Virus record (IMG/VR): IMGVR_UViG_2667527381_000001
Coordinates: 138 to 64,137 of that record
Direction: 5' to 3' (one strand)
DNA length: 64,000 nucleotides
Origin: a virus
Lineage: Duplodnaviria > Caudoviricetes
Numbering within the stretch: position 1 is the first letter of the stretch; each line of letters begins with the position of its first letter. A program made the position numbers and the translations under genes. The notes below the pieces were generated by a model. That model searched no databases and was not told the origin of the DNA. It saw nothing but the letters and a program-made list of their open reading frames with translations. Shown here one piece after another: positions 12,199 through 43,478 of this stretch.

Positions 12199-12948
12199 AT
12201 GAGCAAACGCAAAAACCTGGGCTGGCTGCCCGATGAATTTGATGAACGAGATTTCGTATACAAGTCAAAGAAAACTTCGGCGCAATTCCCAAGCGTGGTA
12301 GACCATAGAAAGCGCTACTTCAGGGCATGGGACCAGGGCGATCTTGGATCATGCACAGCCCATGCTGCCAGCGCCGCCTGCATGTTCCTTGATGTCTATG
12401 ACAGGGACATGCCGGTAGTCGTGCCCTCAAGGATTTTTGTCTATTATGCAACCCGGACTCTTGAAGGAACGAAGCACTCAGATTCCGGTGCAACTCTTCG
12501 CAATACGATCAAGGCCATTGCCACCTGGGGCTACCCGCCTGAGGATAAATGGCCCTACGATATCCGAAAGTTCACGATCCGTCCTCCGGAGGAGGTTATC
12601 AGCCTTGCTGCGAAGGAAAGAATCAAATCGTATGAGCGACTCGGCCGGGATCTCGATCATTTCCGGGAAGTCATAGCCGAAGGCCACCCCATTATTCTCG
12701 GCTTTGCGGTCTACCCTTCAATTTATGACCGGAACGTGAAGAAGACCGGACATATCCCGGTGCCCAAGGCTGGCGAAAAGCGTGAGGGTGGTCATGCTGT
12801 TCTCGTGTGCGGCTATGACGACGCGAAGGAAGCACTGATCATCAGAAACAGCTGGGGTGAGGACTGGGGCGAAGAAGGCTATGGTTACCTCCCATACCGC
12901 TATATCGAGGAGCCGAAGCTTTCCGGGGATTTCTGGACGATCCGCTGA
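12199..12948 (+). CDS. C1A (papain-like) cysteine peptidase
   Basis: DQGDLGSCTAHA (Cys), GGHAVLVCGY (His), IIRNSWG (Asn); AAGGA RBS before ATG 12199. Confidence 0.92.
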   Translation: MSKRKNLGWLPDEFDERDFVYKSKKTSAQFPSVVDHRKRYFRAWDQGDLGSCTAHAASAACMFLDVYDRDMPVVVPSRIFVYYATRTLEGTKHSDSGATLRNTIKAIATWGYPPEDKWPYDIRKFTIRPPEEVISLAAKERIKSYERLGRDLDHFREVIAEGHPIILGFAVYPSIYDRNVKKTGHIPVPKAGEKREGGHAVLVCGYDDAKEALIIRNSWGEDWGEEGYGYLPYRYIEEPKLSGDFWTIR

Positions 12949-13530
12949 ATTGAGACCATATGCTGATCATTGATGTGATTGACGACGATCGTTCTGCCAA
13001 CTGGTCGGTGGCTGAGATGACCTTGGAGGTCAAGCGCCTGCAAAAGGCGCTGAACCGGACCGCTGACAAGGCGGCATCCGCAGTGAAAGCCGACCTTTCT
13101 CAGCGGTTCACGATGCGGAACCAGTGGACGAGAAAAGGCATACGAGTGGATCAGGCGTCAGGCGATGACCTTGATGCGCGTGTGTATTCAGTGGATGAAT
13201 ACATGGTCAAGCAGCAGGACGGTGAAACGTGGAAGCCCAAGGGCTATGTTGCAATCCCCAGGGGGGCAAGAGCATCAGCCCGGGCTCTTATCCCGCGTGG
13301 GATGTTCCCCAATGCCCTGCGCGGTCGGAAGGATGTGTTCAAGTTTGACTTCTCGCAGAATCCTTCTTGGAAGCCGTATCCCCATGTCGGAATCTTTCAG
13401 CGCGTGATGAACGGAAAGCATCTGAGAATTCTATACCTTCTCAAAGGTGAGAAGAAAACAAAGCCAGCGTGGCATTTTGATAGCCAAGTGGAGGAGGCGA
13501 CTGACGAGTATTTCGAACGATTTTATAAAG
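12772..13530 (+). repeat. Diverged direct repeat, copy A (peptidase 3' end plus gpZ-like gene)
   Basis: Aligns by eye to 34000..34770, offset ~21.2 kb. Confidence 0.9.
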
Positions 13531-13541
13531 GCATTGAGTAA
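12960..13541 (+). CDS. Phage protein, possibly lambda gpZ-like tail completion protein (copy A)
   Basis: KALNRTADKAASAVKADLSQRF resembles gpZ-like N-termini; paralog at 34201. Confidence 0.5.
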   Translation: MLIIDVIDDDRSANWSVAEMTLEVKRLQKALNRTADKAASAVKADLSQRFTMRNQWTRKGIRVDQASGDDLDARVYSVDEYMVKQQDGETWKPKGYVAIPRGARASARALIPRGMFPNALRGRKDVFKFDFSQNPSWKPYPHVGIFQRVMNGKHLRILYLLKGEKKTKPAWHFDSQVEEATDEYFERFYKGIE

Positions 13542-13668
13542 GAGGTTTGAGGAACTGGAGCCACAAACCTCAAGAAATGAACTGAAGCAATCTGAGATAT
13601 CCGATGCTATCACTTTTGATGTCATATGGTAAATTCATGGCAAAAGTGACGTGTTTTTCTAGAACAAA

Positions 13669-13983
13669 TCATTCATTCACTCTCTTGTAATCTATATCAC
13701 CGAAAATATATCCTTCTGACCCGTCTTTAGTCCTGATCTTCAAAACGTGCCAGTCTTTGTTATGATCCTCATCCAAAATTATCGCTGATTCGCCGGCCGA
13801 TATCTTTGCAACAACAATGTTACCAGGGCAGTTTGAACAAAATTCAGGTTGAGGCTCTGACATGACCTTAACTTCATTAATAAAAATAATCCTGGTTTCA
13901 CGCTTGCTCGAATACCAAAAGATAATTGCTACTATAATAGCCAGCGCGATTCCTATGTATATTTTCCTGGTATTATTCACCAT
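13669..13983 (-). CDS. Putative cognate immunity protein of the RHS toxin (N-terminal TM plus SH3-like domain)
   Basis: Start overlaps the RHS stop (TAATG); IYIGIALAIIVAIIFWY anchor; DWHVLKIRTKDGSEGYI is SH3-like. Confidence 0.6.
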   Translation of the reverse strand: MVNNTRKIYIGIALAIIVAIIFWYSSKRETRIIFINEVKVMSEPQPEFCSNCPGNIVVAKISAGESAIILDEDHNKDWHVLKIRTKDGSEGYIFGDIDYKRVNE

Positions 13984-16900
13984 TAATGTCCACCAATACC
14001 GTAAAATTTGACTCCAATGAGAGAAGGTGAATTCAACAAAGTTTCGCCCAGCCCTGCCGGAAACATGTTTAACAAAGAACCACCAATATTCACGCCTGCT
14101 TTCTTTAGGCTCCGTTCAGTAGACTGCGAGCAATTGTTAGTAAAGATATTGTATGTACTTTGAGAGCCAAGGTCGTCAACTAATTGAGACTCTTGTGCAG
14201 GAGTTAGGCCAAGTATAAGGCCAACTGCGTTTCCGCCATTTCCAACTCTTGCATTTATGAACAAGTCAGCAGGATATGTATACATTTTACTAGGGACGAA
14301 GCTATAGACCTTACCGTTGACGTTTACGGTTACATGGCCGAATGCTGACGCAATATCTTTTCCCGGACTCCAAATTTGAACTTCAGTATATAAGCCTGTT
14401 GGGTCAATATTATTCACAGGATCGTTCTCGACGTAGCGATATAAGTTAAGACCACCGTCAAATCGAATTGGATCCTTGTTCAACCATCGTCCTATGGAAG
14501 GATCATAGTCCCTCGCGCCGAACCGGAGAAGACGTGTTGTCGAATCATAAAGACCACCGGCAAACCCAAATGGCTGGAACCCAGGATTAGAATCCGACAG
14601 CACGTTCCCCCATGTGTCGTATTCGATTTCCTGCATGATTTGACCATTGCCAGCCCGGATCACGTATATGGGGCTCCCGAGGTGATCTGAAATAATGCGG
14701 TAGCTTACGCCAGATTTTATCATAAGGTCGGGAACATTTCTCTTTTGACCATATACGAAAATTGCCTTGACCGAACCATTTGGATTCAATTGGGCAACCG
14801 GTCTCAAGCCATCCTGATAAATGAATGCAGCGGTGAACTGATCATTGGTCCTTGTGCGAATTCTTCGGTTCAGACCATCTACGAGATATCTAACCGTTGT
14901 GCCGTTGGAGAAGTTAACCCCCAGCAGGTTTCCAAGTGCATCGTATCGGTATGTAACCCAGCTGCCGTCGATCTTATTGTCTTTTCGCTTGAGATGTCCG
15001 CCCAAATTGTAAGTATAGGTCCAGGTTGCATCTGAAACCAGCCGATCATGGGTATCATATACTTCCTGCCCGCCCCCTGTGAGCCGGTTGCCGGTACTCG
15101 TATAGGAATACGTTTGACTCATGCCATCTTTAACTTCGCTTATGAGCTGACCAATGGCGTCATAGGCATACTGCGTCACAGAGCTTGTTGCATTGGCCAC
15201 GCGTGTTCGTGTTGCGATGCGACCCAATTCGTCATAACTGTACTGAAACCGGAGGAATTCTTTACCCTTGACTTTAAGGACTGATTCCGCCTCAGCACCA
15301 TACGTATCATATATGTGCGTGGTTACGATCCCATTGAGTGCCGACCGACTCAGACGTCCCGTGTTTGGATTTCTGGTGTAAGCGAGATTATTAGCTTGCG
15401 TGAGATCGCCATCTGCGTCGTACATATAAGATATGGTGGATTCGTCGCTTCCGTTTACCCGCAGTTTCGAGAGACGATCGAAGGTGTTCCACTCGTATGA
15501 CAGATTGCCATTAACTGGCCCGAACCAAGTTGTAGAGTTCGGAAGGCGTCCCTGGTCGAAGGAAACCTGAACGTTCGTGCTGGTTGAGATCGATTGCAGT
15601 GCCCCATTGCTCCAGGTATAGCTGCGACTAACGCCGGGACCTGTCAAAGTCTGAAGGTTGCCTTTGTCATCGTAGGTAAGATCAACCGTAGTGTTATTCG
15701 GTCTAGTCATCTGTGTGGGCTGATCATCAAGATTGTATGTCCATGCCCAGGCAAAAGTACGAGAACGGATCATGGGTTCGGTATTTAAAACAAGGTTTCT
15801 GTTGTCATCAAAGCCATAGGAATAGGTGCCGGAGGCGGCAGTGGTTATTCCGCTCCGATCCCCGTTCCCATTGTAGGCAAACTGATAGCTCTGATTATTG
15901 GGCAGCGTAAGTGTCGTCAACTGGCCGGCAGCATCATAGGAGTAATTTGTCACCTCGTTCAGCGGGTTTGTAATGGTCGCCAGAAGACCTTGGGAATTGT
16001 AAGTCATCGAGTAGGAGCGGGTCCCCTGGGTGACCGAAGTAGGCTGACCCTTTGTATTATACTGCAATGCTACCGCCTGAATCCCCGGTGACTTCATTTT
16101 TACCGGCCGGCCTTTGGCGTTCAAAATTTCTTTGTATTGGCGCCCCATGGGTGTTGTCGTCGTGAAAGTGCGAGTGGCCTTGTCAAAGGCTGTGCTGTAT
16201 GTGCCAATCCCGTCAAACGTTTGGTTTTCTATCATCGTTGCAATGTCATAGGGATTGGCTGGATCTGTCACAGTATACTGGCGCTCAAAATTCACAATAC
16301 CGCCACCCTGTCCTTCAATGTACTTCGATTGTTCGACCTGGCGATTGCCAAACAGAGGATGAGACGTGTACTGGGTGGTCGATGAATATCCGTGATTATC
16401 CCGCACTTGCAATTGCGAGCGGTCGCCGTTGAAGGATTCCTGCACCGAGTAGCCAGATGGCAGGAGATTTATGTTCTTTTTCGTTCTGTCCCAGCCATAG
16501 GTCGATTCATAAGTGGTCACAAAACCCATAGGTGATGAAAACGTCGCATATTCAGAATATGACTGGGAAGTTTCGCTTTTTGAAGCCTGAATCCTCTTGT
16601 TATATCCCTTGGCATCAATAGCCTCGGCGAGTTTGCCATGTTCGGTAAAGATGTAGGATTTCGTCTTTCCAAGAGCGTCCGTCATCGATGCCATGAGATG
16701 GGCACGATTGCCATCGTAATAGGTGAAGGTGTTTGTGAAGCCCAAAGGATTTTTTATTTCTGCCAAGTTCCCGTTGCTGTCATAGGCGAGCGCTGTAGTG
16801 ATTCCATATGGACTTCGGATTGCTGAGACATTGCCATCCGGATAGCGCAGGATTCTCGTGATTTGGTTATTCCGATCGACGATACGGCTCAAGAGTCCGT

Positions 16901-18128
16901 CCGTATACTGAAAGCTATAGAGAATCACACCAGTAAGCACGTCAATCGTAGCAACATGTTTCCGATTTGAGTCAAATCTATAGATGCTGCCGCCATCATG
17001 AGAAGGGACAATGAAATAGCCCTGGCTGTCCGGATTTTTTTGGAAAAATGTTGTAGCATCCGTGATGTCGGCCCCATTGCCAAGATATATGGTGCCCGTT
17101 TCGGCGTCATAACTATGGACTTCGCTGATCGTCCAATGGCCCATTTTAGTGTCTGAAGGATAGCCGAAAGGCGCCAGCCGCACGGGATGTTTCTGTATGA
17201 TGGTATTAGGGCTGCCTGCAACCCAGCCGGAAACGTACTGGTAACTAATCGTTACCTCACCTTCTGCATAAGTGGTGACATCATTCCCTAGAGCATCCTT
17301 GCGATCCCATGAAAATTCAAGATCCCAGCTCGTGGCGTCCGGATCCGTAGCTTGCACTGTGATTTGCCGGCCAGCTATTTCGAGGATGCCTGATACACCT
17401 ACAACCTTCCAGCGGTTGTCCTGCTCAAATCCGGTTGGGAACCGGGGGACCTTGAAGTAGAGCTTTTTTGTTGGACGCTTGAACTTGTTGATCCGTAGTG
17501 AGTTATAGCTCAGGTGAAACGGTGTTCCAGAAATTTCAACCTTTTGCGCAAGGCTTTGATCCCTGCAGCCGATGATGGATCCTTTCTGGGTGCTTCCTAT
17601 TCCCCCGCACTCATCCTTGGACGTGTCAGGATCCTGTTGAGCCGCACTTGGGACTGCGAATTCGGAAAGGGCGCGGCAATCGAAATATCCACCAAATGAT
17701 CCCGAATAGGTCCCGGCATCCGGTGGATGATCCCAGTTTCGTGCATTGAGTTCATTGATCGTTTGTTCCACGGCACTTTGCAAATCTGCGAGGGTGACTC
17801 CTGGTCGCGTTATCTGGACCTGGCCGATGCCTGAACAGTAACCAGTACCCTCTGTCCCATCTATTGAGTTCGAGACGCCGCAGTCGGATGTGCCTGTCCC
17901 ATTGCCATCTGGGCTGGAGAAATTCAATTTCCATCCACACGTTAAATGGATGGCAGTGCAGCTCATAGCCTGATCCGAACCCACTGGCATGTAGCCGCTG
18001 CCGCCACTCGCAGGCGACGAACCATTTAGTGCGAATTGCGGACTTAATCCGCATGCGACTGCATTATTACCAAAAGACAGAGACGCGATCAGGAAAATGA
18101 CGGACGTAAGAATGGTTCTCACAGACAT
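13983..18128 (-). CDS. Secreted RHS/YD-repeat, teneurin-like polymorphic toxin with C-terminal permuted papain-like domain
   Basis: Signal peptide; YD repeats; RHS core DHLGSP...PFGFAGGLYD...FGARDYDPSIGRWLNKDP...DPTGL; C-terminal FGHV...NNCS. Confidence 0.9.
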   Translation of the reverse strand: MSVRTILTSVIFLIASLSFGNNAVACGLSPQFALNGSSPASGGSGYMPVGSDQAMSCTAIHLTCGWKLNFSSPDGNGTGTSDCGVSNSIDGTEGTGYCSGIGQVQITRPGVTLADLQSAVEQTINELNARNWDHPPDAGTYSGSFGGYFDCRALSEFAVPSAAQQDPDTSKDECGGIGSTQKGSIIGCRDQSLAQKVEISGTPFHLSYNSLRINKFKRPTKKLYFKVPRFPTGFEQDNRWKVVGVSGILEIAGRQITVQATDPDATSWDLEFSWDRKDALGNDVTTYAEGEVTISYQYVSGWVAGSPNTIIQKHPVRLAPFGYPSDTKMGHWTISEVHSYDAETGTIYLGNGADITDATTFFQKNPDSQGYFIVPSHDGGSIYRFDSNRKHVATIDVLTGVILYSFQYTDGLLSRIVDRNNQITRILRYPDGNVSAIRSPYGITTALAYDSNGNLAEIKNPLGFTNTFTYYDGNRAHLMASMTDALGKTKSYIFTEHGKLAEAIDAKGYNKRIQASKSETSQSYSEYATFSSPMGFVTTYESTYGWDRTKKNINLLPSGYSVQESFNGDRSQLQVRDNHGYSSTTQYTSHPLFGNRQVEQSKYIEGQGGGIVNFERQYTVTDPANPYDIATMIENQTFDGIGTYSTAFDKATRTFTTTTPMGRQYKEILNAKGRPVKMKSPGIQAVALQYNTKGQPTSVTQGTRSYSMTYNSQGLLATITNPLNEVTNYSYDAAGQLTTLTLPNNQSYQFAYNGNGDRSGITTAASGTYSYGFDDNRNLVLNTEPMIRSRTFAWAWTYNLDDQPTQMTRPNNTTVDLTYDDKGNLQTLTGPGVSRSYTWSNGALQSISTSTNVQVSFDQGRLPNSTTWFGPVNGNLSYEWNTFDRLSKLRVNGSDESTISYMYDADGDLTQANNLAYTRNPNTGRLSRSALNGIVTTHIYDTYGAEAESVLKVKGKEFLRFQYSYDELGRIATRTRVANATSSVTQYAYDAIGQLISEVKDGMSQTYSYTSTGNRLTGGGQEVYDTHDRLVSDATWTYTYNLGGHLKRKDNKIDGSWVTYRYDALGNLLGVNFSNGTTVRYLVDGLNRRIRTRTNDQFTAAFIYQDGLRPVAQLNPNGSVKAIFVYGQKRNVPDLMIKSGVSYRIISDHLGSPIYVIRAGNGQIMQEIEYDTWGNVLSDSNPGFQPFGFAGGLYDSTTRLLRFGARDYDPSIGRWLNKDPIRFDGGLNLYRYVENDPVNNIDPTGLYTEVQIWSPGKDIASAFGHVTVNVNGKVYSFVPSKMYTYPADLFINARVGNGGNAVGLILGLTPAQESQLVDDLGSQSTYNIFTNNCSQSTERSLKKAGVNIGGSLLNMFPAGLGETLLNSPSLIGVKFYGIGGH

Positions 18129-18632
18129 CCTCAGGCATTTGATGTGAGCAAATTTAGATGCTTTTCGGATGATGTCTGCCTGGCGTACAAAAGCGCCTAA
18201 AAGCCTTATCGTTTAGGCGGCATATACGATCTTTTAAGATGAAGTGAACCACTCCATCTAATTTAATTGATGCCACTTGTCCGGCTGGGAGTCAGCATTA
18301 CAGTACGCCTCACGCTTGACAAACTTCCAGAAAGTACAGAATGATGTCTGTCTTCGAGGGCAACGGCGTGTTCGAATTTGTATAGTGAGCTGTACCACCA
18401 ATCAAAAGACAGAGGCTGGGACTGCCTCTGTCTGGGGTTCGCGACTTGGGTGGATAGCTCTCTTTCACATAACGTTCAGGACTTTTTAAATACCCCGAAC
18501 ACGGACAGGGTTATCCATGCATTCTGCAATCAGTTGAGACTATGAAGTCTGAACGGAGCCACACGACGCCCGCATTGGCTCTAAAAAAAGGGACCGCGTA
18601 TCCACGATCCCTTCATTTTTAGCGCTTTCAGA

Positions 18633-19127
18633 TCAATCGAATACCTGAGGTTGGAGCATGGCTACAAAATCAGTGAACGACTTTGCTATAAGTGAGCAAT
18701 TTCTCAACGGGTTTTTCGCATCCTCAGGATCGTCAAAGTCCACCTCATTTTCATGATCCCAATAGACCACATATCCAAAGGCCAGATTATTCAAAAGCAT
18801 TGCAATCTGGTTTCCCCCTGCATCGCTTCCAATAGCTATCAGATAATCCGGCATCCTTCTCTGATTAATATGGTAGGTTTGATAGGCTCGTTGAATGTCA
18901 GCCCAGTTTGGTGCTCCAAGCCCGTAAAAGGTTTCTATGCCCTCTTCAATCATCCTGCCTTTGTTGTCGCACTTAAAGACCATCGCGGAATCTAGTGTTC
19001 CACCGTTGGATTCCAGAATAAAGGCCCGATAATCATCAGGGAAACGGAAGCCTATATTTCTCTCAAAGGACTCCAATTCCTGGGGTGTGCACGAACCCCA
19101 TTCCTTACTAAGCTTATTTTTTAGCAT
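18633..19127 (-). CDS. SMI1/KNR4 (SUKH) family immunity protein, copy A
   Basis: LESFERNIGFRFPDDYRAFILESNGG, IAIGSDAGGNQI, VVYWDHE, IAKSFTDF. Confidence 0.92.
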   Translation of the reverse strand: MLKNKLSKEWGSCTPQELESFERNIGFRFPDDYRAFILESNGGTLDSAMVFKCDNKGRMIEEGIETFYGLGAPNWADIQRAYQTYHINQRRMPDYLIAIGSDAGGNQIAMLLNNLAFGYVVYWDHENEVDFDDPEDAKNPLRNCSLIAKSFTDFVAMLQPQVFD

Positions 19128-19596
19128 GTAATTCTACCTCACCAAAGTATAGTGCCATCAGGCAATTCAGGAATACCTTCCAGCAAATGGCAGGTTCAAT
19201 ATGCAAGCCGGGTTCTTTAAAATAAGTTAGTTAAATTAGTGTGTTAATGGGTCTGTGATAGGCTTGAGGTGTCAGAAAAATTGACACCTGTTCTGATCTG
19301 GATTGTTTAAGCCGTTTTCGTGATCTATTACTCAATGTAACGAATTTAAATAGCGACAAGAAGCAGGCGGATTGATAGCCAAAAAAGAAACAATTGAAGG
19401 TCAAGCCAAGAAATGCCGAAAATTCTCCATTCTAAATTTACAACCTTAGCCTAGTCTATCAGACTTCGTCAATGGTGAGCCCAAGTATCGATTGGCCTGC
19501 TGATTGTATGGGTGGTTGTTTCTTGCTCCTGAAATTCTTTTTGAAATACTCGTAAAACATTCAAGGAATAAGTGTAAACGTAAGGAGATGCTTAGA

Positions 19597-21726: not shown

Positions 21727-21737
21727 CAGTCAAAGTT

Positions 21738-21770
21738 TACAGGCCCCCTGCGATTTTCAAGGGGCTTGTA
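21738..21770. terminator. Hairpin between convergent genes
   Basis: TACAGGCCCC...GGGGCTTGTA stem. Confidence 0.5.
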
Positions 21771-33774: not shown

Positions 33775-33930
33775 GGGTCCTTCTAGAGCTCATAGGTTCA
33801 ATGGTTGACGATCAACCACCCCCTCCCGCTCGGTTTGATAAAAATTTTGCGTCACCGGCACCACTTAGATCTGTGAAAAGCGGACCCCATAGGGCCTTCA
33901 TAGAAACCCCTGGTAAATCGATGGACACTG
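33775..33930 (+). other. cos-like packaging-region copy 1 (orphan, no downstream terminase)
   Basis: GGGTCCT at 33775; 63 bp (33804..33866) identical to 43274..43336; CCCTGGTAAAT..TGGACACT shared. Confidence 0.6.
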
Positions 33931-33999
33931 AGTGTAACCATTGGGTGCTCCGAACCCAAAGAGAATGCCCTTTCCCCCTTCCGGCCGAGCATGACGGCA

Positions 34000-34188
34000 G
34001 GCGAAAAGCGCGAGGATGGTCATGCCGTTCTCGTATGCGGCTACGACGACACGAAAGAGGCCCTTATCATCCGCAACAGCTGAGGCGAGGACTGGGGTGA
34101 GGATTGGGGTGAGCAGGGCTATGGCTATCTTCCATACCGCTTTATCGAAGAACCAAAGCTTTCCGGAGATTTCTGGGCGATCCGCTGA
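34000..34188 (+). pseudogene. 3' remnant of the C1A peptidase
   Basis: Homologous to 12772..12948; lacks the catalytic Cys region; in-frame TGA at 34081 in a duplicated WGED unit. Confidence 0.85.
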
Positions 34189-34200: not shown

Positions 34201-34911
34201 ATGCTGATCATAGATGTGATTGACGACGATCGCTCCCCCAACTGGTCAGCGGCTGAGTTGATTGAGGAGGTAAAGCGCCTGCAGAAGGCGCTGAACCAGA
34301 CCGCTGACAAGGCCGCATCCAGGGTGAGAGCCGACCTTCCCCAGCGGTTCACAATGCGAAACCAGTGGACGAGAAAAGGCATCCGGGCGGACCTGGCTTC
34401 GGGCGATGACCTTGAGGCCCGTGTCTTCTCGGTTGACGGCTACATGGTCAAGCAGCAGGACGGCGAAACGTGGAAGCCTGATGGCCATGTCGCAATCCCC
34501 AAGACGGCAAGGCGTTCTGCCAAGTCCCTCATTCCGCGAGGCATGTTCCCCAATGCCCTACGCGGCCGCAAGGATGTTTTCAAGTTTGACTTTTCGCAGA
34601 ACCCTTCCTGGAAGCCTTATCCTCATGTCGGGATTTTCCAGCGGGTAATGAACGGCAAGCATTTTCGCATCCTCTATCTGCTCAAGGACCAGAAGAATAC
34701 GAAACCCCTCTGGCATTTTGATGATCAGGTGGAGGCCACGGTGGATCATTGTTTCGATCGTTATCATGACGAATTGGCATCAACTAGCGATGCACAATTC
34801 TTCTCAACACGCCGGCTGCTTCTGCTGCCTCGTCCATTGAATAGTCATGTTCGAGAATTAGGACAATCGCAGGTTGACTACGATGCTCCAGCTCTTCCGA
34901 TTTGCCTTTAG
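34201..34911 (+). CDS. gpZ-like phage protein copy B with non-homologous C-terminal extension
   Basis: Highly similar to 12960..13541 over ~190 aa, then diverges. Confidence 0.6.
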   Translation: MLIIDVIDDDRSPNWSAAELIEEVKRLQKALNQTADKAASRVRADLPQRFTMRNQWTRKGIRADLASGDDLEARVFSVDGYMVKQQDGETWKPDGHVAIPKTARRSAKSLIPRGMFPNALRGRKDVFKFDFSQNPSWKPYPHVGIFQRVMNGKHFRILYLLKDQKNTKPLWHFDDQVEATVDHCFDRYHDELASTSDAQFFSTRRLLLLPRPLNSHVRELGQSQVDYDAPALPICL

Positions 34912-35400
34912 GTCCTCATTATTCGCCCTCGATCATTGAGGTTGAATCAACTATATATACTTCTTGCGAGAGAAACGCTTTGGGTCATAACTTAATCGAC
35001 GGTAAAAAAATAGGGGCCGCTGCCGCGATTCCCTCATCCGACTCTCTATCTAAGTCAATTACGAATTCATGCTGATATCAGCGTCCCTAGACTCCTTTGA
35101 AGTGTAATCCATTCCTTCGGATCCTGCATGGATTGAATCAGACTTCAAATCGTCATGATCAGCTAAACCGATTTTAGAGGTTGCACTGGATGGCGTTAGG
35201 TAAGCGTGCGAATGCAACATTATTCGCGGTCATTTTTTAATCAAGATCCTATATTTTTGTCTGCACCGTAGAACATACGATTAAAGAAACCGCTAATTTA
35301 ATAAAGGTTTGAATTTTTCAACTCAAGTTTTCTTCACTTCAATATCGATTGATGTCTGCTACAAAACTTGAATCACATTATCTCTATAAAGGAAAATACG

Positions 35401-36144
35401 ATGAAGAAGCTGCTAGTTAGTGCTGCGTTGCTGTTCACATTTTCGAGTTCAATTTTTGCGCAAGGAGAAGAGCTCCGCGGAGGTGGAGTCACCGCTCCCT
35501 CAATAAGCGACAAAGACAATTGGGAGAATTCTTTCAAAGGCGACATCATTCTTGATACCAGTGACAATAACTTCTATGGGCTAGATAACACCGGAACGTG
35601 GAGGAATATTTCTGCAGTTTCGACTGAAGCTAGCCCTAGTACCTCTGGATATGTAACTAATACAGACCAGACATTTGGTGGTAACAAGACATTTAATGGC
35701 TCAATCACTCCTGCTGGCGGAATAGTAGGAAAAACTGATGGTGCGCCCATTGCACAAGGCCTTATTGGAGAGAAAAAGACTGCCACGCTTTCAGATACTA
35801 CATTTGCAGCGACTGGGACTGGGTTCAATGTTACCGGTGGCAGCATTACTCTTACTCCTGGAGTGTGGATGGCATTTCTAAAACTGGGAGCCGCTCCTCC
35901 GTCGTCGACGTGGACCCTATTCCAACAGTCTATCAGCACAATCAGCGCCACGTTACAAACGCCCTCTCTAACAAGGGACCAGTCAACCGGAGTAACCAAT
36001 GCAAGATTCCCTGGAACATCCGTTGCATATTTCAATGTTTCTTCCGATACAACAATTTATGCTGTTGCTAGTGCTGACTATACAGGAACAGCTGGCAATG
36101 TAGCCTCTGCGCACTCCCAGTTCTTTGCAATCCGCATCCAATAA
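35401..36144 (+). CDS. Secreted tail-fibre-like protein, paralog 1
   Basis: Signal peptide; EELRG; QTFGGNKTFNGSITPAGGIVGKTDG; ends FFAIRIQ. Confidence 0.75.
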   Translation: MKKLLVSAALLFTFSSSIFAQGEELRGGGVTAPSISDKDNWENSFKGDIILDTSDNNFYGLDNTGTWRNISAVSTEASPSTSGYVTNTDQTFGGNKTFNGSITPAGGIVGKTDGAPIAQGLIGEKKTATLSDTTFAATGTGFNVTGGSITLTPGVWMAFLKLGAAPPSSTWTLFQQSISTISATLQTPSLTRDQSTGVTNARFPGTSVAYFNVSSDTTIYAVASADYTGTAGNVASAHSQFFAIRIQ

Positions 36145-36225
36145 TGCACAAAATTAGCGACGCAATCCAGCGTCCCCACTGTCTATTATGAAATTTGGAT
36201 CATATTTCTCAATAAAGGAAATACC

Positions 36226-37020
36226 GTGAGAAAGGTGCTGTTTAGTGCTGTGTTGCCATTCATATTTTCCGGTTCAATTTTAGCGCAAGACGAAGAGCTT
36301 CGTGGAACGGGCTTTAATGCTCCCACGGTAACTGATACTGAAGGAGTTGCCAATCCTGCTCAGGGTGAGATCGTCTTTGTACCCTCAGGAGCGAATACGG
36401 GTGCTTTTTATGGATATGCTGGTGCAACTGACCTATGGCATAACCTCTCGGCAGCTTCCACTCCTGCAGGTCCTAGTACTTCAGGGATCGTAACTGACGG
36501 AACAACTGGGGCTCAAACTTTTGGTGGCGACAAGGTATTTAACGGATCAATTACTCCCGCTGGTGGCATCGTGGGTAAGACTGATGGTGTACCTGTAGCG
36601 CAAGGTTATGTGGGTGAAACTCTAGCCGCAACACTCGGATCAGTACAAACTTCGACTTCGAGTAGCCCTGTAGCAATATCCGGTTTGAGCTTAAACCTTA
36701 CGGCAGGTAACTGGCTTGTGTTTGCTATGGGGACTCAGGACTTTACATCATTTAGTACCGGCGGTTCAACACAAGGATACGCGGAGATATATAACTCCAC
36801 AGATGGGGTTACGCTGGCTAATCAATCAAGCCACATTTTTATTGGCGTAAGTCCGGGTTCTGTGGGAGACTCTCAGTACGGCTCTTTTAGTATCATTCAT
36901 CCTCTCATTATCGGCTCGGGTACTAAAACGATTGTTTTGCGTCACGCAGTTGCAGGGTCAGGTTCTAACACCATCCGCACTTACCAGAATACGCGTCTAC
37001 TCGCAGTTCGCATTCAATAA
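36226..37020 (+). CDS. Secreted tail-fibre-like protein, paralog 2
   Basis: Same N-terminal and stalk motifs; ends LLAVRIQ. Confidence 0.75.
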   Translation: MRKVLFSAVLPFIFSGSILAQDEELRGTGFNAPTVTDTEGVANPAQGEIVFVPSGANTGAFYGYAGATDLWHNLSAASTPAGPSTSGIVTDGTTGAQTFGGDKVFNGSITPAGGIVGKTDGVPVAQGYVGETLAATLGSVQTSTSSSPVAISGLSLNLTAGNWLVFAMGTQDFTSFSTGGSTQGYAEIYNSTDGVTLANQSSHIFIGVSPGSVGDSQYGSFSIIHPLIIGSGTKTIVLRHAVAGSGSNTIRTYQNTRLLAVRIQ

Positions 37021-37102
37021 TCCACTCGTAAGCCAATAGGGATCGCGATAGCGCCCCCTCCTCAGTTTGTTACAAGAAAGAGTCACATTATAAGGAAATA
37101 CT

Positions 37103-37846
37103 ATGAAAAATTTGTTATTAAGTGCTGCATTGATGTGTTTCCTGTCGATGACAGGATTTTCTAATGAGCCGTTGCGTGGTGGTGTGTTCAATGCACCAAC
37201 AGTAGATGGAACTTCAAGTGTAGACTGGCCAGTCCTCGGTGATATAATTTTTGATGATTCCGGGTCTGCCTTTTACGGGTATGACGGGACGCAGTGGATT
37301 AACCTTGGGGCGTCTGCGACTCCCGCAAGTCCTACGACCCCTGGTATTGTTACGGCTGGACCTAGCTTGCAAGAGTTTGCAGGTCCGAAATCATTTCTGG
37401 ACACAACCACAGGAACAAAAATCGCTCACTTCGAGCAGAGTTCTGCTTTGGCGACTAGTGATGAAAGAGGGCTGGTTGCTCCAAGAATGGGGCAAGTTAA
37501 CTTCACTGTAACAGGAACAGGTTGGACGACCACGCGTGCAGTTGGCATTTATTACCAAGACCAAGACGGCAACCTTCGCCTAAAATTTAACCTTAGTGGA
37601 ACTATCTCAGGCCAAGCAAACAGCAACGTTGTGGCGCTTACGGTATCCGGCATTACAGGCGTCAACAGCAAGTAGGCTGTAGCTGTACACAACAATAATG
37701 CACAGACGTCCGGAACCTCCATAGCGGCTTTAAGTGCGTCGAGCGGGGTTATCGAAATTCTGCTTAGCTCTGTAGTGTCCATAAACACCACTTGGTCAGT
37801 CTCGGGGGACATTGAACTGGCAAGTAAACCCACGTGGACCCCATAA
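37103..37846 (+). pseudogene. Secreted tail-fibre-like paralog 3 interrupted by an amber stop
   Basis: TAG at 37673..37675; the frame stays open for 56 more codons to ...SGDIELASKPTWTP-TAA. Confidence 0.7.
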
Positions 37847-37883
37847 CCAAATTGAATCACATTATCTCAATAAGGAGAATACG

Positions 37884-38696
37884 ATGAGAAATTTGCTGAT
37901 TAGTACTACGTTGCTGTTCACATTTTCCGGTTCAGTTTTTGCGCAAAGCGAAGAGTTTCGAGGAGCAGGATTTAATGCTCCAACTGTCAGCGGTACGGAA
38001 AGTGTTTTGGATCCTGTCAAAGGTGAGATTATTTTCGATGGATCCCCTGGATCAGAAGCATTCTATGGGTATATAGGGTCAAACACATGGCACAACTTTT
38101 CAGCAGCTACTGTTCCAGCAGGGCCTACCACTTCAGGAATCGTAACTCATGGCGCCGACAGTACTACTCAAACGTTTGGTGGCAATAAGATTTTTAATGG
38201 CTCGATTACCCCAGCAGGTGGCATTGTGGGTAAGAATGACGGTGTTCCTATTGAAGAGGGATACGTAGGACAGAAAATCACGTGGGAAACTCCGCCGTCA
38301 ACGCAATCGTTTGGCACAAGCACTTCTGATTGGGCTAATGCTTCAATCACATTGACTCCTGGTGTATGGCTGGTTATTGCTAATATTGGTGCTCGGGTAT
38401 CAACAGCAGCGGCAACTGGTGCGACTTCTCAAATCAACGTATCTATCACGGATGGTCTAGACAACATCGTACAAGAGCAAGCCAAAGCGCTTTATGTTTA
38501 TAGTCCGTCCGCTGCTGCTGCGGATATTATTAGCTGTTTGTCATTTTCTTTTGTTGCAAATATTCCTTCGAGTTCGCCTTCCACAACATACAAGATAAGG
38601 GCGAATAAGTCTGAGAGTGGAGGTACGGCAAGTGCCAGCATTTACCGTAATGGCGCAAACATCAATAGTGAATTCTTCGCCGTCCGCATTATCTGA
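37884..38696 (+). CDS. Secreted tail-fibre-like protein, paralog 4
   Basis: AAGGAG RBS; same motifs; ends FFAVRII. Confidence 0.75.
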   Translation: MRNLLISTTLLFTFSGSVFAQSEEFRGAGFNAPTVSGTESVLDPVKGEIIFDGSPGSEAFYGYIGSNTWHNFSAATVPAGPTTSGIVTHGADSTTQTFGGNKIFNGSITPAGGIVGKNDGVPIEEGYVGQKITWETPPSTQSFGTSTSDWANASITLTPGVWLVIANIGARVSTAAATGATSQINVSITDGLDNIVQEQAKALYVYSPSAAAADIISCLSFSFVANIPSSSPSTTYKIRANKSESGGTASASIYRNGANINSEFFAVRII

Positions 38697-38733: not shown

Positions 38734-38985
38734 CTGCTTCAGAATATGATCCCTCTCTGATCTCCCTATTGTTTAACCGCAAAGTCTAACAAAAATCGTT
38801 CAAACTGAATGGACCGGATTTAAGCCCTGAGCAACGGCGTGGGATCGGTCTAAGTCCGGAAGGCATGCCGCAGGCAAATGAGAGTATGAAGTCTGAACGG
38901 AGTCACACGACGGCTGCGCTGGCACTAAAAATCTAAGATAACAAGTATTTATCTCCGCAAGAAAACCTACCTGCATCAGGATTGA

Positions 38986-39615
38986 TTATGTTTGAGATTG
39001 AAGCATAGCCAAAAATTCACTAAATGATTTCGCTATGAGTGTGCAGTTTCTTACCGGGCTTTTTGCTTCTTCAGGATCGTCAAAGTCCACCTCATTTTCA
39101 TGATCCCAATAGACCACATATCCAAAGGCCAGATTATTCAAAAGCATTGCAATCTGGTTTCCCCCTGCATCGCTTCCAATAGCTATCAGATAGTCCGGCA
39201 TTCGTCTTTGATTGATATGATAGGTTTGATAAGAACTTTGGATATCCGCCCAATTTGGTGCTCCAAATCCGTAAAAGGTCTCTATGCCCTCTTCAACCAT
39301 CTTGCCTTGGTTGTTGCCCTTGAAGACCATCGCGGAATCTAGTGTTCCACCGTTGGATTCCAGAATAAAAGCCCGATAATCATCAGGGAATCGGAAGCCG
39401 ATTTTCCTCTCAAAGGACTCCAATTCCTGGGGTGTGCATGAACCCCACTCTACGCTATTCTTCACGCATTGTACGTCCTCAGCCACCACAGTCCTATCAT
39501 GAACAATCTGGATGGCTGCAGTAATAAACAATGGAACGCCAACTGCCAGGAGCGGCATTAGCGTAGTTAGATATAGCTTGTGCAGGATCGATGAACTTTT
39601 GGCTTTCTCCGTCAA
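38986..39615 (-). CDS. SMI1/KNR4 family immunity protein, copy B (start may be GTG 39465)
   Basis: Near-identical to 18633..19127 from EWGSCTPQE onward. Confidence 0.88.
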   Translation of the reverse strand: MTEKAKSSSILHKLYLTTLMPLLAVGVPLFITAAIQIVHDRTVVAEDVQCVKNSVEWGSCTPQELESFERKIGFRFPDDYRAFILESNGGTLDSAMVFKGNNQGKMVEEGIETFYGFGAPNWADIQSSYQTYHINQRRMPDYLIAIGSDAGGNQIAMLLNNLAFGYVVYWDHENEVDFDDPEEAKSPVRNCTLIAKSFSEFLAMLQSQT

Positions 39616-39696: not shown

Positions 39697-40602
39697 TCAA
39701 GCGGCGTGGAATTTTTGCTGTATAGTTTCCCTTTTGTCGTCTTTGACTCCGTCGATCGGCTGAAAGCGATGGACGACTCTCAAAGACCTTTTGTGGATAG
39801 GGTCCAATAGGTAACGAGAGATTTGCTTTTCCCCCTGATAAATTTTAAACTCATGGCGCCTATCCTCAAACGAAGGCTTGCATTGTACATTTACGATCGC
39901 AAATTCAGGGCCAATGGTAATGTGTCCGTCTTTAAAGACTACTAGATTTCGTCTTTCTGAAAGACGCGCGGATTCATATCTTATGCCTTTTATTCCTTTG
40001 GCTAATGAACAAGCTGCTAGTTGCTGACAAATGCTGTAGTCATTGCTCATTGAAAAATTAATTGAATCCTTGTGTCTTTTGTTCTTATCGATATAGCGAT
40101 CATAACCAAGTTCCACCAAACAATTGTAGAGATTTTCCCGATTCGACATATCAGCAATATTTGCTTTAGCGAGATTGCATTCAACGTGAAAGACAACCAA
40201 GTAGAAATCCAGAACTTCAGGCAAACTTCGTTTGAAAGTAAGCTTGGAGTTTTGTTGTGCTTGATTAAAGCTCTTTAGTGTTTTGAAGTTCTTGCTGAAG
40301 ACATGATATGAAACTTCTAATAGAGATGTTTCTGGATCTTCGCTGAGATACAGTGATCGGCAACTTTTAGGAGGGTTAAAGCGCGCGCCCTGATAAGCTG
40401 AGTAGTTGAAGCTGCCTTCAATAAATGCTGATTGCTGTTTTGTAATCACCTTGGATACAAATGATTTTGCATACTCGTAGTTTTCTTTGAGTGTCCACCA
40501 TGGATCCTCAGTTTTAGCCCCAAGTTGTGTCCATTTCTTACTGTCTTTCCGGTCTAGCGAATGGATCAAGTTCTCAAATTTTATGCATCGAAAGAACTTC
40601 AT
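39697..40602 (-). CDS. RES-domain protein (putative NAD+-degrading toxin)
   Basis: GARFNPP...SLYLSEDPETSLLEV...GIRYESAR...RNLVVF. Confidence 0.85.
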   Translation of the reverse strand: MKFFRCIKFENLIHSLDRKDSKKWTQLGAKTEDPWWTLKENYEYAKSFVSKVITKQQSAFIEGSFNYSAYQGARFNPPKSCRSLYLSEDPETSLLEVSYHVFSKNFKTLKSFNQAQQNSKLTFKRSLPEVLDFYLVVFHVECNLAKANIADMSNRENLYNCLVELGYDRYIDKNKRHKDSINFSMSNDYSICQQLAACSLAKGIKGIRYESARLSERRNLVVFKDGHITIGPEFAIVNVQCKPSFEDRRHEFKIYQGEKQISRYLLDPIHKRSLRVVHRFQPIDGVKDDKRETIQQKFHAA

Positions 40603-41069
40603 TGGAAGGCCAACTCCCTCGAAATCTGAATAAGTAGTTCAATAATTCTCTTAAAGTAATCATCTTGGCGATTTGATTTTGATGGCTTCTTGCTCAAATG
40701 TGCGGCGTAAATCCTATTGGAAAGATCGATTATTTCAGACATCCGCAGATGACCGGTACCTATTCGATCTACAACTCCTTCTCGAAGCCAATTCTGCAAA
40801 CCAATCTCATTTTCTTGGGAGGATTTTTTGGCGATTATATGTGCCATGTAGAAGTTAAAATCATTACGATCTTTGGGTGCCATAATTGGTAGTATTTTTT
40901 TTACTTCTTCGGGAAGGAGTGCTTCTGTGTCTGTTTCAGGTAGTGAATTTATCTTTGCAGATAAACGAGAGCTTGCGGTTTCAAATTTAATCACAGTACC
41001 TCCTGCCGAATATAATGCCTTCTCGGCGGGTAACCGAATGAATGAATATGCAATAATTGCCCATGCCAA
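40599..41069 (-). CDS. Putative antitoxin partner of the RES protein
   Basis: ATGA overlap with the RES start; antitoxin-before-toxin order; TTG start uncertain. Confidence 0.5.
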   Translation of the reverse strand: MAWAIIAYSFIRLPAEKALYSAGGTVIKFETASSRLSAKINSLPETDTEALLPEEVKKILPIMAPKDRNDFNFYMAHIIAKKSSQENEIGLQNWLREGVVDRIGTGHLRMSEIIDLSNRIYAAHLSKKPSKSNRQDDYFKRIIELLIQISRELAFQ

Positions 41070-41356
41070 AGCCTTGTAGACCTTCGAGCCATAAGTGCGG
41101 AAACTTAGGTGCTACTCCCATTATTGAGCGGCAGAAAAAATTGAGTGCATTATCGAGAGCGAGGTGTTTGAGTCTGGCAGGCTTGAACTTCGATGACTTG
41201 TTGGAGGACGGAATAGCCGATCATCGTGTCTGTTCCTGTATGCCATGGGGTTCCGTTTGGGGAAAATCCACGATTTCAATAGCTATCCAAAATTGAAGCA
41301 TTGCCTCATTAGCAACTCCACCCTTAGCTAAGAGTCATTCAAAACTACGATATCCT

Positions 41357-42793
41357 TCAAGTTTTCGGAGTAATATCATCCCCTCCATATTCGGAGCTTT
41401 TTAACCCCTTCAAGGGACCAAATGTCCTGTTTGCAAATTCGTCGATTGCTTTGGCAGATGCTTCGTCAAAGACAACGTCCCTCGCCACAAAAAAATCTTC
41501 GGATCTTTGCAGCGATGAAGCAGATTCAATGGCAATTCCGATTACTGCTTTCAACTCCAATCTGCGATATGCAGCGAAACAGGCATTTCGAAGCAAAGCA
41601 GCACGCTGTTGCCGACTAACCTCAGCATCAACTACTGTCAAAATCACTACTGCTATTTCCGAATCATCCAGGTGCTTAATTACTCTGAAAGCAATAGGAA
41701 AGCGCCTTGTCTTCAAGTTTACATCTGCTCGCAATGCACAATCTCTCACAGCTTCTCCAATCGCGCGTCTGGCCAGACGCTTAAGACTGGCCAAATCTGT
41801 CGATAGCTGAAAATGCGCTTCGACGGATCCTGGAGGAGCAACAGCTAACAGCTCTGGGTCATGATTTATTTCATACCCGATTGACCGATGTGATCCTTGC
41901 AAAATCTTGTCTACAATATATGAAGTCAAGTTTAGCTCATTTCTCCGAATGATTGCAGGCGCGAGGTGAGATACATAATAGTCCCAAATTCCTGGCTCCA
42001 ATGCTATTCCATCGATCGGCCCTGCGAATTCCTCTTCAATTTCGGGTAGCTTGGTTTTGTAGAAAGCCAAGAAATCAAGTTCATTAAGATCGCCAATCAT
42101 CTGTCCTTCTAGCATGTCGCGGCGTCGATCAAGATAACTTAGAAGATCCGGCAAAGTATCCAATTCGATTGAAACCTTGTCAAAGTCATTGATATCGAAG
42201 ATATGCACAGGATAGTCTCGAAAAAGTCTAAATCCATTCTGGAGTTCGAACTTTTTCTCTTCAGGAAAATTTTCAACGCCAGGGAAAGCTACGACGGAAA
42301 TGCAGACAAGATTCAGATTTGGAGTCGAAGCAATATCGATCTGATTTCCTCTCAGATTTGTTAGAGGCGGCAGCAAGCGATTTTTCAATAGACGAATAAT
42401 GGTTTCAAATTGACCTATTGCCTTGTCTACTAATCCCCCAGCGCGCCCCAGAATCGTGGCTTCGTCTTTTTCAGGGCTGAGGGTTTTGTGCTTTATCTGA
42501 AAAGCAATCAGAGTAGTACCAAGTAAAACGAGAATGTCAGCCACTTCCTTTTGATTTGGTCCATCCATGAATTTGGGGGTTCGAAACACGAGGTCGGGAA
42601 CGCCAATTCTTTCACAGATTTTTTGAACAATTTCTTCTAGATGGTCTCCATCGTTGATAGACGTACTTACAAAATGTCTTTCGCGCCAACGCTTTAAAGA
42701 TTCAAGGTCTTCGGGATTTCCAACACTCGACCGCTGTTGAGTCATTTTCTTTGCCTTACGCAATTGACGTTTAAGATTTTTTTTTGACATCAT
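41357..42793 (-). CDS. Hypothetical protein with PD-(D/E)xK/NERD-like N-terminal motif
   Basis: KEVADILVLLGTTLIAFQIK resembles a nuclease-fold signature. Confidence 0.6.
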   Translation of the reverse strand: MMSKKNLKRQLRKAKKMTQQRSSVGNPEDLESLKRWRERHFVSTSINDGDHLEEIVQKICERIGVPDLVFRTPKFMDGPNQKEVADILVLLGTTLIAFQIKHKTLSPEKDEATILGRAGGLVDKAIGQFETIIRLLKNRLLPPLTNLRGNQIDIASTPNLNLVCISVVAFPGVENFPEEKKFELQNGFRLFRDYPVHIFDINDFDKVSIELDTLPDLLSYLDRRRDMLEGQMIGDLNELDFLAFYKTKLPEIEEEFAGPIDGIALEPGIWDYYVSHLAPAIIRRNELNLTSYIVDKILQGSHRSIGYEINHDPELLAVAPPGSVEAHFQLSTDLASLKRLARRAIGEAVRDCALRADVNLKTRRFPIAFRVIKHLDDSEIAVVILTVVDAEVSRQQRAALLRNACFAAYRRLELKAVIGIAIESASSLQRSEDFFVARDVVFDEASAKAIDEFANRTFGPLKGLKSSEYGGDDITPKT

Positions 42794-43011
42794 AAGTTGA
42801 GTTCCGAATCATTTTTCGTCGCTTGAACCCGAGTCTATAAGAACAGTTTCAATATTGCAACAATCTGTTACTTAAGAGAATTAATCGAGATATGGGGTTT
42901 ACAATCGGAAGCGAATGGTCCCCATTTCCAGCTTCTAAGTGCGAAACTGGTTCCGCATTCCTTTTCCAAACAAGTCGTTATATAGTCACGCCTGAACTGA
43001 AGGAAAGCTAT

Positions 43012-43200
43012 ATGCGACGTGTATTTGCAGATATTGAAGATAGAGAAACAGACTGCTGGGGATTCCATTGCCCCTTCTGCAAAGTCTACCTGACCGAAGA
43101 TAAACCCGCCAAGAGTTCCATCGACGCTCGATGCGCAGACTGTGATGCAGGTTTCCTTGTCACTTTTTTTGACGAAGAGGGGAACAATGCCGCGATATGA
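43012..43200 (+). CDS. Small zinc-ribbon protein
   Basis: CPFC...CADC; AAGGA RBS. Confidence 0.55.
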   Translation: MRRVFADIEDRETDCWGFHCPFCKVYLTEDKPAKSSIDARCADCDAGFLVTFFDEEGNNAAI

Positions 43201-43246
43201 CTTGATGAAAATTCTTTGCGCGCGAAGTCAACTTCTATGATTGCAT

Positions 43247-43478
43247 GGGTCCTTTCATCAATAAAAACGGTCAGTTGACGATCAACCACCCCCTCCCGCT
43301 CGGTTTGATAAAAATTTTGCGTCACCGGCACCACTTGCCTTCGTGAACATCTTTAGCTGAAAGACTTATAGACCTATCCCTGGTAAATTTGTGGACACTA
43401 CGATGTCTCTTCCTGCCGGGTGAAGCCGGACTTTCAAGGGATTTAAGCATTCCCTGCGTCCGCAAATTTGCGGACACT
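43247..43478 (+). other. cos-like packaging region upstream of terS (copy 2)
   Basis: GGGTCCT (lambda cosQ sequence) at 43247; 63-bp block with GTTGA-CGA-TCAAC symmetry; repeats AAATTTG(T/C)GGACACT at 43385 and 43464. Confidence 0.65.
43458..43475. promoter_or_regulatory. 18-bp perfect palindrome, candidate operator (second copy 47899..47916)
   Basis: GTCCGCAAATTTGCGGAC; GTCCGCAAATTAGCGGAC upstream of the head protease. Confidence 0.55.

Follow-up and report, generated by a model that had tools for sequence, protein, structure and literature searches.

The stretch of DNA analysed here, 64,000 nucleotides (nt) covering positions 138 to 64,137 of the IMG/VR virus record IMGVR_UViG_2667527381_000001 (Duplodnaviria; Caudoviricetes) and hereafter called the window, belongs to a prophage in which two successive cargo units, with the same landmarks and wholly different contents, lie between the lysis genes and the terminase genes. 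The question raised by this locus is how one prophage came to hold the same cargo region twice, and what such a stack would mean for its packaging and for the exchange of its cargo. An initial annotation of the window, made from the sequence alone, had proposed that two alleles of the same cargo slots are stacked in one element, as a chimera of two related prophages. This proposal is supported by the existence of relatives with a single module, by a synonymous divergence (dS) of 0.5-1.0 between the units and by the changes accumulated in a truncated gene copy. It is considered probable that the two copies of the module come from two related but distinct phages, which were recently joined by one non-homologous splice.

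The window corresponds to G000:C1:2033311-2097310 in a genome of 7,569,109 bp (54.3% G+C, 18 runs of N), and the host of the prophage is very probably Oligoflexus tunisiensis. From one attachment site (att) to the other, the prophage measures 82,740 bp and extends beyond the 64-kb window.

Two units, two predicted cos sites and one joint

Gapped self-comparison of the window yielded direct matches only, all in the same order. The first landmark, made up of the 3' end of a C1 peptidase gene and a gpZ-like gene, was found at 12768-13494 and again at 33996-34735 (740 columns, 80.5% identity, E = 0), with differences evenly distributed and a longest identical run of 23 nt. The second, an SMI1 gene with its flank, was found at 18519-19103 and 38863-39450 (593 columns, 83.3% identity, E = 2e-174); it contains an exact tract of 122 nt (18724-18845 and 39071-39192), which could be either a gene-conversion patch between the units or the result of smoothing by a short-read assembler, and a second identical run of 47 nt. 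The third, at 33804-33866 and 43274-43336, is identical over its whole length (63/63, E = 1e-25). The three landmarks are collinear and in the same orientation in the left-hand unit (unit 1) and the right-hand one (unit 2), as had been reported in the initial annotation, whose coordinates are correct within a few bases. As for the cargo between the landmarks, it is indeed wholly different, the only match between the two interiors in a tblastx comparison being SMI1, and the gene content of the two units is as described, i.e. a C1 peptidase, a pair of gpZ-like genes, a pair of SMI1 genes, and an RHS gene in unit 1 vs. four paralogues in unit 2.

The third landmark had been presented as a pre-terminase block. 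The repeat itself is real; what has to be amended is its nature, as the 63-nt block is predicted to be a lambda-type cohesive-end (cos) site, which means that cos is doubled too. The two copies, in direct orientation and 9,470 bp apart, are hereafter called cos1 (internal) and cos2 (terminal). Each is preceded by the cosQ heptamer GGGTCCT, located 22 nt (cos1) or 20 nt (cos2) upstream of the core; in the lambda record the same heptamer is found 23 nt from the right-end nick, the spacing here being 20-23 nt. In an alignment of seven sites (the two window copies and five elements from relatives), a conserved GGGTCC(T) is followed by a variable spacer and then by the invariant 11-base TGACGATCAAC, which sits within the dyad GTTGA-CGA-TCAAC that opens the core and has partial two-fold symmetry. 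Downstream of it come a pyrimidine-rich run and an AAAAA-TTTGCGTCAC-like motif, and both cores carry GTTGACGATCAAC dyads. The 7.57-Mb genome contains exactly three occurrences of the composite pattern GGGTCCT-N10-45-TGACGATCAAC, two of them being the window sites and the third lying immediately ahead of the small terminase subunit gene (terS) of a sister prophage described below, vs. 775 and 19 occurrences for its component words taken alone. Among related contigs, five carry this pattern ahead of terS, and two others carry it close to their ends.

On its + strand, the window contains the octamer [CT]GGACACT three times: each cos site has one copy at +118, counted from the start of its core, and cos2 alone has another at +197. 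These octamers resemble the R sites of lambda, for which the distance from cosN matters (PMC9026076), and are putative terS-binding sites. Concerning the genetic context, cos2 lies upstream of terS and of a terL with GpA_ATPase and GpA_nuclease domains, a context that cos1 has lost through the splice. The 63-nt block does not correspond to any known RNA, as no Rfam family was found anywhere in the window; a sigma-70 promoter was also considered for it and rejected, since the spacing does not fit and the cosQ and dyad signature does. Among other elements, GGGTCCT and a neighbouring TTCCGG, as in lambda, are kept upstream of gpA-type terminases at G000:C1:6605097 (minus strand) and at loci L019, L022, L023, L032 and L035, and cosQ is conserved in several Oligoflexus prophages even where terS is only ~28-35% identical.

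The junction that had been reported near 33.93-34.0 kb, where sequence from ahead of terS meets the interior of a peptidase gene, is present in the sequence and can be placed at ~33,976-33,995, i.e. ~170 nt to the right of the cos1 core, copy 1 being weakly alignable to copy 2 up to ~33,975. To the right of this joint, only the end of the second peptidase gene is left. In this fragment, an in-frame TGA (34081-34083) stands in place of the Trp codon of NSWGE, a motif shared without change by seven homologues, and a 12-nt in-frame insertion is also present. The open reading frame (ORF) of 99 amino acids (aa) at 33801-34100 differs in frame from the peptidase and is probably spurious. The gpZ-like gene that follows the fragment has lost its native stop codon and reads on into ~40 unrelated residues.

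Two parental phages vs. other origins

Relatives of the module were sought by tblastn, with the window ORFs as queries and contigs of three further genomes of the genus as targets, and the comparison was completed by a sister prophage of the same genome (6.58-6.64 Mb; 61,248 bp, with a 31-nt bounding repeat and the same gene order). Their shared architecture runs from the endolysin, through a small helix-turn-helix (HTH) gene, an optional C1 peptidase, the gpZ-like gene, unrelated genes and sometimes a homologue of the 102-aa gene that precedes cos2, to terS. Three contigs are contiguous from endolysin to terS, each with one gpZ-like gene and one variable block, of 12.5 kb in G005:C238, 2.6 kb in G005:C57 and 8 kb in G009:C297; in the sister prophage, which has one gpZ-like gene and one cos, the block measures ~14 kb. 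The exact cos motif is single in G005:C238 and G005:C57, and no exact match to the pattern was found in G009:C297. In the sister prophage, the cargo includes genes for an Mrr-type nuclease and a Schlafen/AlbA_2 protein, together with a beta-helix protein whose match to phospholipase A2 is weak and below the cutoff; in G005:C238 it includes a trypsin-like protein and a sigma-54 activator. Since the gpZ-like gene occurs once in every relative, with unrelated content beyond it, it is a core gene, and the stretch from it to terS is a hypervariable cargo hotspot, which would lie at the right end of the virion chromosome.

The comparison with related prophages, which had been suggested as a check for single-unit versions, has a clear outcome: the three relatives and the sister prophage each carry one module and 0/4 carry both units, so the two-unit state is not ancestral. 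It bears directly on the idea that the two-unit layout is the normal, stably inherited state of this lineage, both gpZ-like copies being needed. Both copies are open and were under purifying selection, as that idea would require; however, a single gpZ-like gene is present in 4/4 contiguous relatives, the second peptidase is broken and gpZ2 has lost its native stop, and a stable two-unit lineage is considered highly improbable.

Between the units, dS amounts to 0.93 for the gpZ-like genes, 1.02 for the 3' end of the peptidase and 0.54 for SMI1, with a ratio of non-synonymous to synonymous divergence (dN/dS) of 0.04-0.13. When the peptidase changes were polarised with six outgroups, 10 synonymous and 3 non-synonymous changes were assigned to the branch of the truncated copy, vs. 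8 and 3 to that of the intact copy. Had this copy been truncated ever since a duplication in place, neutral drift would give about 3/4 of non-synonymous changes, and the rough binomial chance of 3 or fewer among 13 is ~2e-4. Because the changes on the truncated branch are mostly synonymous, the fragment appears to have accrued most of its divergence as a working gene elsewhere; its truncation seems to be recent, since it holds just one nonsense codon and one in-frame insertion.

These values have to be set against another possible origin, in which the module was duplicated in tandem within the prophage, the copies slowly diverged and all the cargo was replaced. Unequal crossing-over would yield an identical joint geometry, and the gpZ pair and the SMI1 pair are each mutual nearest known relatives. 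Nonetheless, a dS of 0.5-1.0 would need an initially identical tandem repeat of >10 kb to have long survived collapse, and the truncated copy would never have been a functional gene; it nevertheless displays the 10 synonymous vs. 3 non-synonymous changes mentioned above and a single nonsense codon. The cos sites point in the same direction: the left spacer of cos1 resembles those of L022-L025, the left spacer of cos2 and the 102-aa gene preceding it resemble those of L032, and the two left flanks belong to different lineage types that are found separately in other genomes. Duplication in place is regarded as very unlikely.

It can also be asked whether unit 2, from cos1 to cos2, is a cos-bearing, satellite-like hitchhiker that was inserted beside the phage cos for packaging. 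It is bounded by two cos sites, its genes are of cargo type (a RES toxin-antitoxin-like pair, SMI1 and secreted proteins), and satellites with a cos site are known (PMC9026076, PMC9122126). Yet no integrase, primase, repressor, capsid-redirecting or replication gene was found in 33.9-43.3 kb; the unit opens with a truncated peptidase and a copy of the phage core gpZ-like gene, ordered as in unit 1; and its 9.5 kb are far below the packaged size of a ~61-kb phage. We find such an origin barely credible.

Several points weigh against an origin from two parents. The argument drawn from the peptidase dN/dS concerns only 59 codons. No known relative is closer to the product of gpZ1 than that of gpZ2, and vice versa (81% vs. 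at most 66% to others), and the two parents are deduced rather than observed. The 63-nt cos core is 100% identical while its flanks are ~50% identical, for which shared terminase specificity, gene conversion or assembly smoothing are possible reasons. Finally, the source genome is very probably the published assembly of O. tunisiensis Shr3T, which was built with SOAPdenovo from Illumina 2x90-bp reads of a 0.48-kb and a 6.3-kb library (PMC5154148). Because the element contains exact repeats of 122 nt (SMI1; longer than a read) and 63 nt (cos core), the order of the two inter-repeat segments rests on paired-end scaffolding.

With this type of assembly and these exact repeats, the stack could be a short-read artefact, i.e. 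a single-module prophage with a misplaced segment, or a prophage with its slot B segments (those between SMI1 and cos) swapped. Indeed, the paths through the repeat graph permit an exchange of the slot B segments, or a single-module prophage accompanied by a circle of 9.5 or 20.3 kb. Even so, an artefact seems unlikely: the joint lies in k-mer-unique sequence, the identical runs of the peptidase/gpZ pair being at most 23 nt; no orphan 5' half of the second peptidase gene exists anywhere in the genome; the nonsense codon falls in an otherwise invariant motif, as in a real remnant; and the closest scaffold gap is 283 kb off. Furthermore, both linear paths through the repeat graph retain two tandem units, and the circle solutions need a molecule of 9.5 or 20.3 kb, with no replication gene found in the 9.5-kb one.

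Formation, packaging and known systems

How two parental phages could have produced this stack, and what would follow from it, we infer from the arrangement described above. In the proposed splice, the right flank of cos in a parent A, ~170 nt beyond the core, would have been joined to the middle of the peptidase gene of a parent B. This could have occurred by a single deletion in a tandem double lysogen at the same att, removing the late genes, int and att of A together with the early and lysis genes of B. Alternatively, two co-replicating genomes could have undergone an illegitimate crossover that was then resolved via the shared backbone. The stack would then be a short-lived 'heterozygous' intermediate in the exchange of cargo.

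Were the repeats to recombine, the stack would be reduced to a single-module phage, of which three kinds, each with its own set of cargo, are expected: exchange within peptidase/gpZ would remove 21.2 kb and leave 61.5 kb, exchange within SMI1 would remove 20.3 kb and leave 62.4 kb, and exchange within the cos core would remove 9.5 kb and leave 73.3 kb. The first of these events had been foreseen in the initial annotation. The figure of 21.2 kb stands; the product, as it would be 61.5 kb of the 82,740-bp prophage, comes near the 61,248 bp of the sister prophage, as does the 62.4-kb product of SMI1 exchange, and is not lambda-sized at ~42 kb, a comparison that fails because it counted only the visible 64 kb.

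In lambda, initiation of packaging requires cosN and cosB, and termination requires cosQ and cosN, independently of cosB (PMC4669245). As cos1 has cosQ, the core and the first R-like site, it could, under lambda's rules, terminate packaging started at cos2. Packaging from cos2 would thus be expected to stop at cos1 after 73.3 kb, and virions would omit unit 2. The prophage has 135% of the length of its sister, and at 82.7 kb may be too large to package. In all of this, cos function and cohesive ends are predicted from sequence. It may further be suggested, as a doubtful extension, that both cos sites are active and yield more than one kind of packaged chromosome, that the diverged repeats, the 122-nt tract of SMI1 and the 63-nt cos core included, are sites of ongoing exchange, and that stacking is no isolated accident but a regular and selectable route by which the cargo alleles beside cos are shuffled among the phages of this group.

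The closest parallel to the predicted sites is the cos of lambda (PMC4669245, PMC9026076), with which they share GGGTCCT upstream of a dyad core, a location ~170-240 nt upstream of terS, a gpA-type terL and, on the rightward side, repeats that resemble R sites. They differ from it in that the core sequence is unrelated to lambda cosN, that the host belongs to Bdellovibrionota/Oligoflexia and that the site is here read from the sequence only. Two cos sites in direct orientation are also found in the laboratory dilysogens and cos duplications of the Feiss laboratory (PMC4669245, PMC9026076); the present case is natural and not engineered, and its cos sites are just 9.5 kb apart, bracketing cargo instead of a whole genome. 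As for the cargo, a hypervariable block by cos between conserved flanks is known from the cos-adjacent defence hotspots of P2-like and P4-like elements (PMC9122126; PMC13586616), where restriction-modification, toxin-antitoxin-like and other defence-type genes are likewise encountered and the content likewise differs from one relative to another. Unlike in those hotspots, head and packaging genes are here of lambda type, the hotspot lies between a post-lysis gene and cos, and hotspot, core gene and cos are all doubled.

Phage mosaicism is thought to arise mostly from rare illegitimate joins followed by selection, and to our knowledge usually only its tidy products are seen, raw intermediates seldom. 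Among lambdoid phages, mosaicism is reportedly generated by illegitimate recombination, morons and relaxed homologous recombination, as is said to emerge from the work of Hendrix, Juhala and co-workers and of De Paepe et al. 2014. The present prophage has in common with these phages a non-homologous joint within a gene, modules bounded by short conserved sequences, a moron-like C1 peptidase and its own exonuclease, annealing protein, SSB and RusA. In contrast to them, an untidy intermediate seems to have survived here. The prophage appears to preserve mosaicism in its raw state: the gene at the joint is truncated, a core gene is present twice, and two predicted cos sites enclose 9.5 kb of cargo.

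The strain being culturable (JCM 16864), three matters become testable with it, i.e. internal cos termination in nature, cos-adjacent exchange of cargo and the excess of a prophage over its packaging size. No described phage of Oligoflexia was found in the searches made here, including those of the phage collection and of viral contigs, and with the predicted sites the known range of the cosQ heptamer of lambda, as well as that of cargo hotspots beside cos, is widened to include phages of this class.

Genes of the two units and of the prophage

The features of the doubled region and of its surroundings are listed in Table 1.

Table 1. Positions of the landmarks, cargo slots, predicted cos sites and backbone genes in the window
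Feature	Position	Strand	Basis and remarks
Endolysin	10674..11171	+	phrog_315, E = 3e-38; last lysis gene and left anchor of the backbone; syntenic in all relatives
Small HTH protein	11376..11651	+	phrog_3/phrog_8 regulators; backbone gene ahead of the module, after the endolysin in relatives and sister
Intact C1 (papain-family) peptidase	12094..12948	+	Pfam Peptidase_C1, E = 9e-13
gpZ-like gene 1	12960..13541	+	193 aa; phrog_1924 'minor tail protein', E = 2e-15; opens the cargo module
Slot A of unit 1: RHS/YD-shell toxin gene and overlapping 104-aa SH3-like gene	13669..18128	-	Pfam RHS_repeat, TEN_YD-shell, SH3_3
SMI1/SUKH gene 1 and conserved downstream flank	18519..19127	-	Gene 18633-19127; Pfam SMI1_KNR4, E = 1e-20
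Slot B of unit 1	19128..33774		14.6 kb; Pfam, PADLOC; no similarity to unit 2
cos1, predicted internal cos	33775..33975	+	cosQ heptamer 33775-33781, dyad core 33804-33866, R-like site 33922 (+118 from core start); without second R-like site
Novel joint, right flank of cos to mid-peptidase	33976..33995		cos2-flank homology fades by ~33,975; peptidase homology starts at 33,996
Truncated C1 peptidase pseudogene	33996..34188	+	Frame 33997-34188; last ~63 codons only, without the catalytic Cys region
gpZ-like gene 2	34201..34911	+	phrog_1924; protein 81.5% identical to copy 1
Slot A of unit 2: four paralogous, predicted secreted proteins	35368..38696	+	Common signal peptide and stalk; weak phrog_11393 (tail-fibre) match
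SMI1/SUKH gene 2 and flank	38863..39615	-	Gene 38986-39615; Pfam SMI1_KNR4, E = 9e-22; 87% protein identity to copy 1
Slot B of unit 2: RES-domain gene and overlapping upstream 156-aa gene, 478-aa gene	39697..42793	-	Pfam RES, E = 1e-15; others without family match
102-aa gene ahead of cos2	42892..43200	+	Homologues directly upstream of terS in G005:C57 and G009:C297
cos2, predicted terminal cos	43247..43478	+	cosQ 43247-43253, core 43274-43336, R-like repeats 43388-43399 and 43467-43478; 174 nt upstream of terS
terS and gpA-type terL	43510..46003	+	phrog_57 terminase small subunit; Pfam GpA_ATPase, GpA_nuclease
Integrase	62681..64000	+	phrog_1 integrase, E = 2e-42; last gene of the prophage; attR core 161 nt further on

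The label 'gpZ-like' given in the initial annotation is to be taken as tentative, being based on the match to phrog_1924 and on a weak hhalign comparison with lambda Z (probability 10%, E = 0.003, 46 co-linear columns). The protein has no match in Pfam or NCBIfam, and an AlphaFold2 model built from 9 sequences, with a predicted local distance difference test (pLDDT) score of 52, was judged unusable. Further relatives of the gene were found on one 3.8-kb contig of an Oligoflexus metagenome-assembled genome, among genome contigs, and on one 1.1-kb contig, among metagenome contigs, neither being informative on architecture; none was found in viral contigs. With the stretches 11-35 kb and 43-64 kb as queries, megablast found nothing in the phage collection.

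The intact C1 peptidase is 74-80% identical to homologues that occupy four different positions in related phages, and behaves like a mobile moron. Loci L026, L027, L028 and G000:C1:6611653-6612441 illustrate this mobility: depending on the phage, the gene precedes gpZ, follows gpZ and cargo, follows the portal gene or lies in the interval from the tail genes to int.

In slot A of unit 1, the RHS/YD-shell gene itself covers 13983-18128, and the 104-aa SH3-like gene is probably the immunity gene of this toxin. Slot B of unit 1 holds genes for a 740-aa secreted protein, an HTH protein, a CAAX-protease cassette and a TonB_C lipoprotein, as well as an MmeI-type IIG restriction-modification gene at 30705-33452. 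In unit 2, the four paralogues of slot A had been described as fibre-like genes. Four paralogues with a weak match to a tail-fibre PHROG are indeed present; each of them starts with a signal peptide, and they are therefore predicted to be secreted proteins and not conventional tail fibres. The RES gene and its 156-aa neighbour in slot B are suggestive of a RES/Xre-like toxin-antitoxin layout. The cargo genes of 740, 478, 156, 290 and 225 aa gave no match in PADLOC, NCBIfam or Pfam.

Some of the unit 1 cargo has counterparts elsewhere in the same genome. The stretch 21824-25096 (a 141-aa gene, the HTH gene, the CAAX-protease gene and a 223-aa gene) recurs in part at G000:C1:1172375-1175536, with 88% identity, and as a more distant partial copy at G000:C1:6869801-6871142, and appears to be a mobile cargo cassette. 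Further direct repeats of 76-78% identity exist within unit 1 (25183-25560 vs. 26731-27086, and 28270-28347 vs. 29544-29622); they flank the gene of 290 aa at 25776-26648. A similar but decayed module is located at G000:C1:4041832-4047476; it comprises a gpZ-like gene with a frameshift, an HTH gene whose protein is 82% identical and, in divergent orientation, an RHS gene (37% identity to the window RHS).

Concerning the prophage as a whole, the att core is a 20-nt direct repeat at window coordinates -18579 (L017:1422) and 64161 (L018:161). The prophage is integrated at the 3' end of a groEL paralogue, inside the GGM-repeat tail, and this gene end constitutes the right copy of the repeat. The right flank was matched from the att point onward in all 13 genomes of the genus, and an empty att site, with the left and right flanks adjacent, was found in G013:C156. 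An ORF beside attL (L017:1769-3139) was examined as a candidate integrase and rejected, Pfam and PHROGs giving only a replication-initiator-like HTH; the integrase is the gene at the other end of the prophage (62681-64000).

From left to right, the prophage begins with the replication-initiator-like gene and ~17 kb of bacterial-type cargo, followed by early genes (primase-helicase, exonuclease, annealing protein, SSB and RusA), the endolysin, the HTH gene, the doubled region, terS, the gpA-type terL, head genes, tail genes and int. The head genes code for a lambda-family portal, an S49 protease and a gpE capsid protein, and the tail genes for sheath, tube and GPD; the prophage combines head and packaging genes of lambda type with a contractile tail of P2 type, as judged from these assignments. 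A 456-aa protein in which only HTH_36 (replication-initiator type) was recognised adjoins attL both here and in the sister prophage (G000:C1:6639950-6641143), at the end opposite to the integrase. The left-arm cargo (L017:4510-17849) includes two histidine kinases, an NtrC-type sigma-54 activator, a radical SAM enzyme, a solute-binding protein and a beta-lactamase-family protein, bacterial-type genes that are unusual for the early region of a phage.

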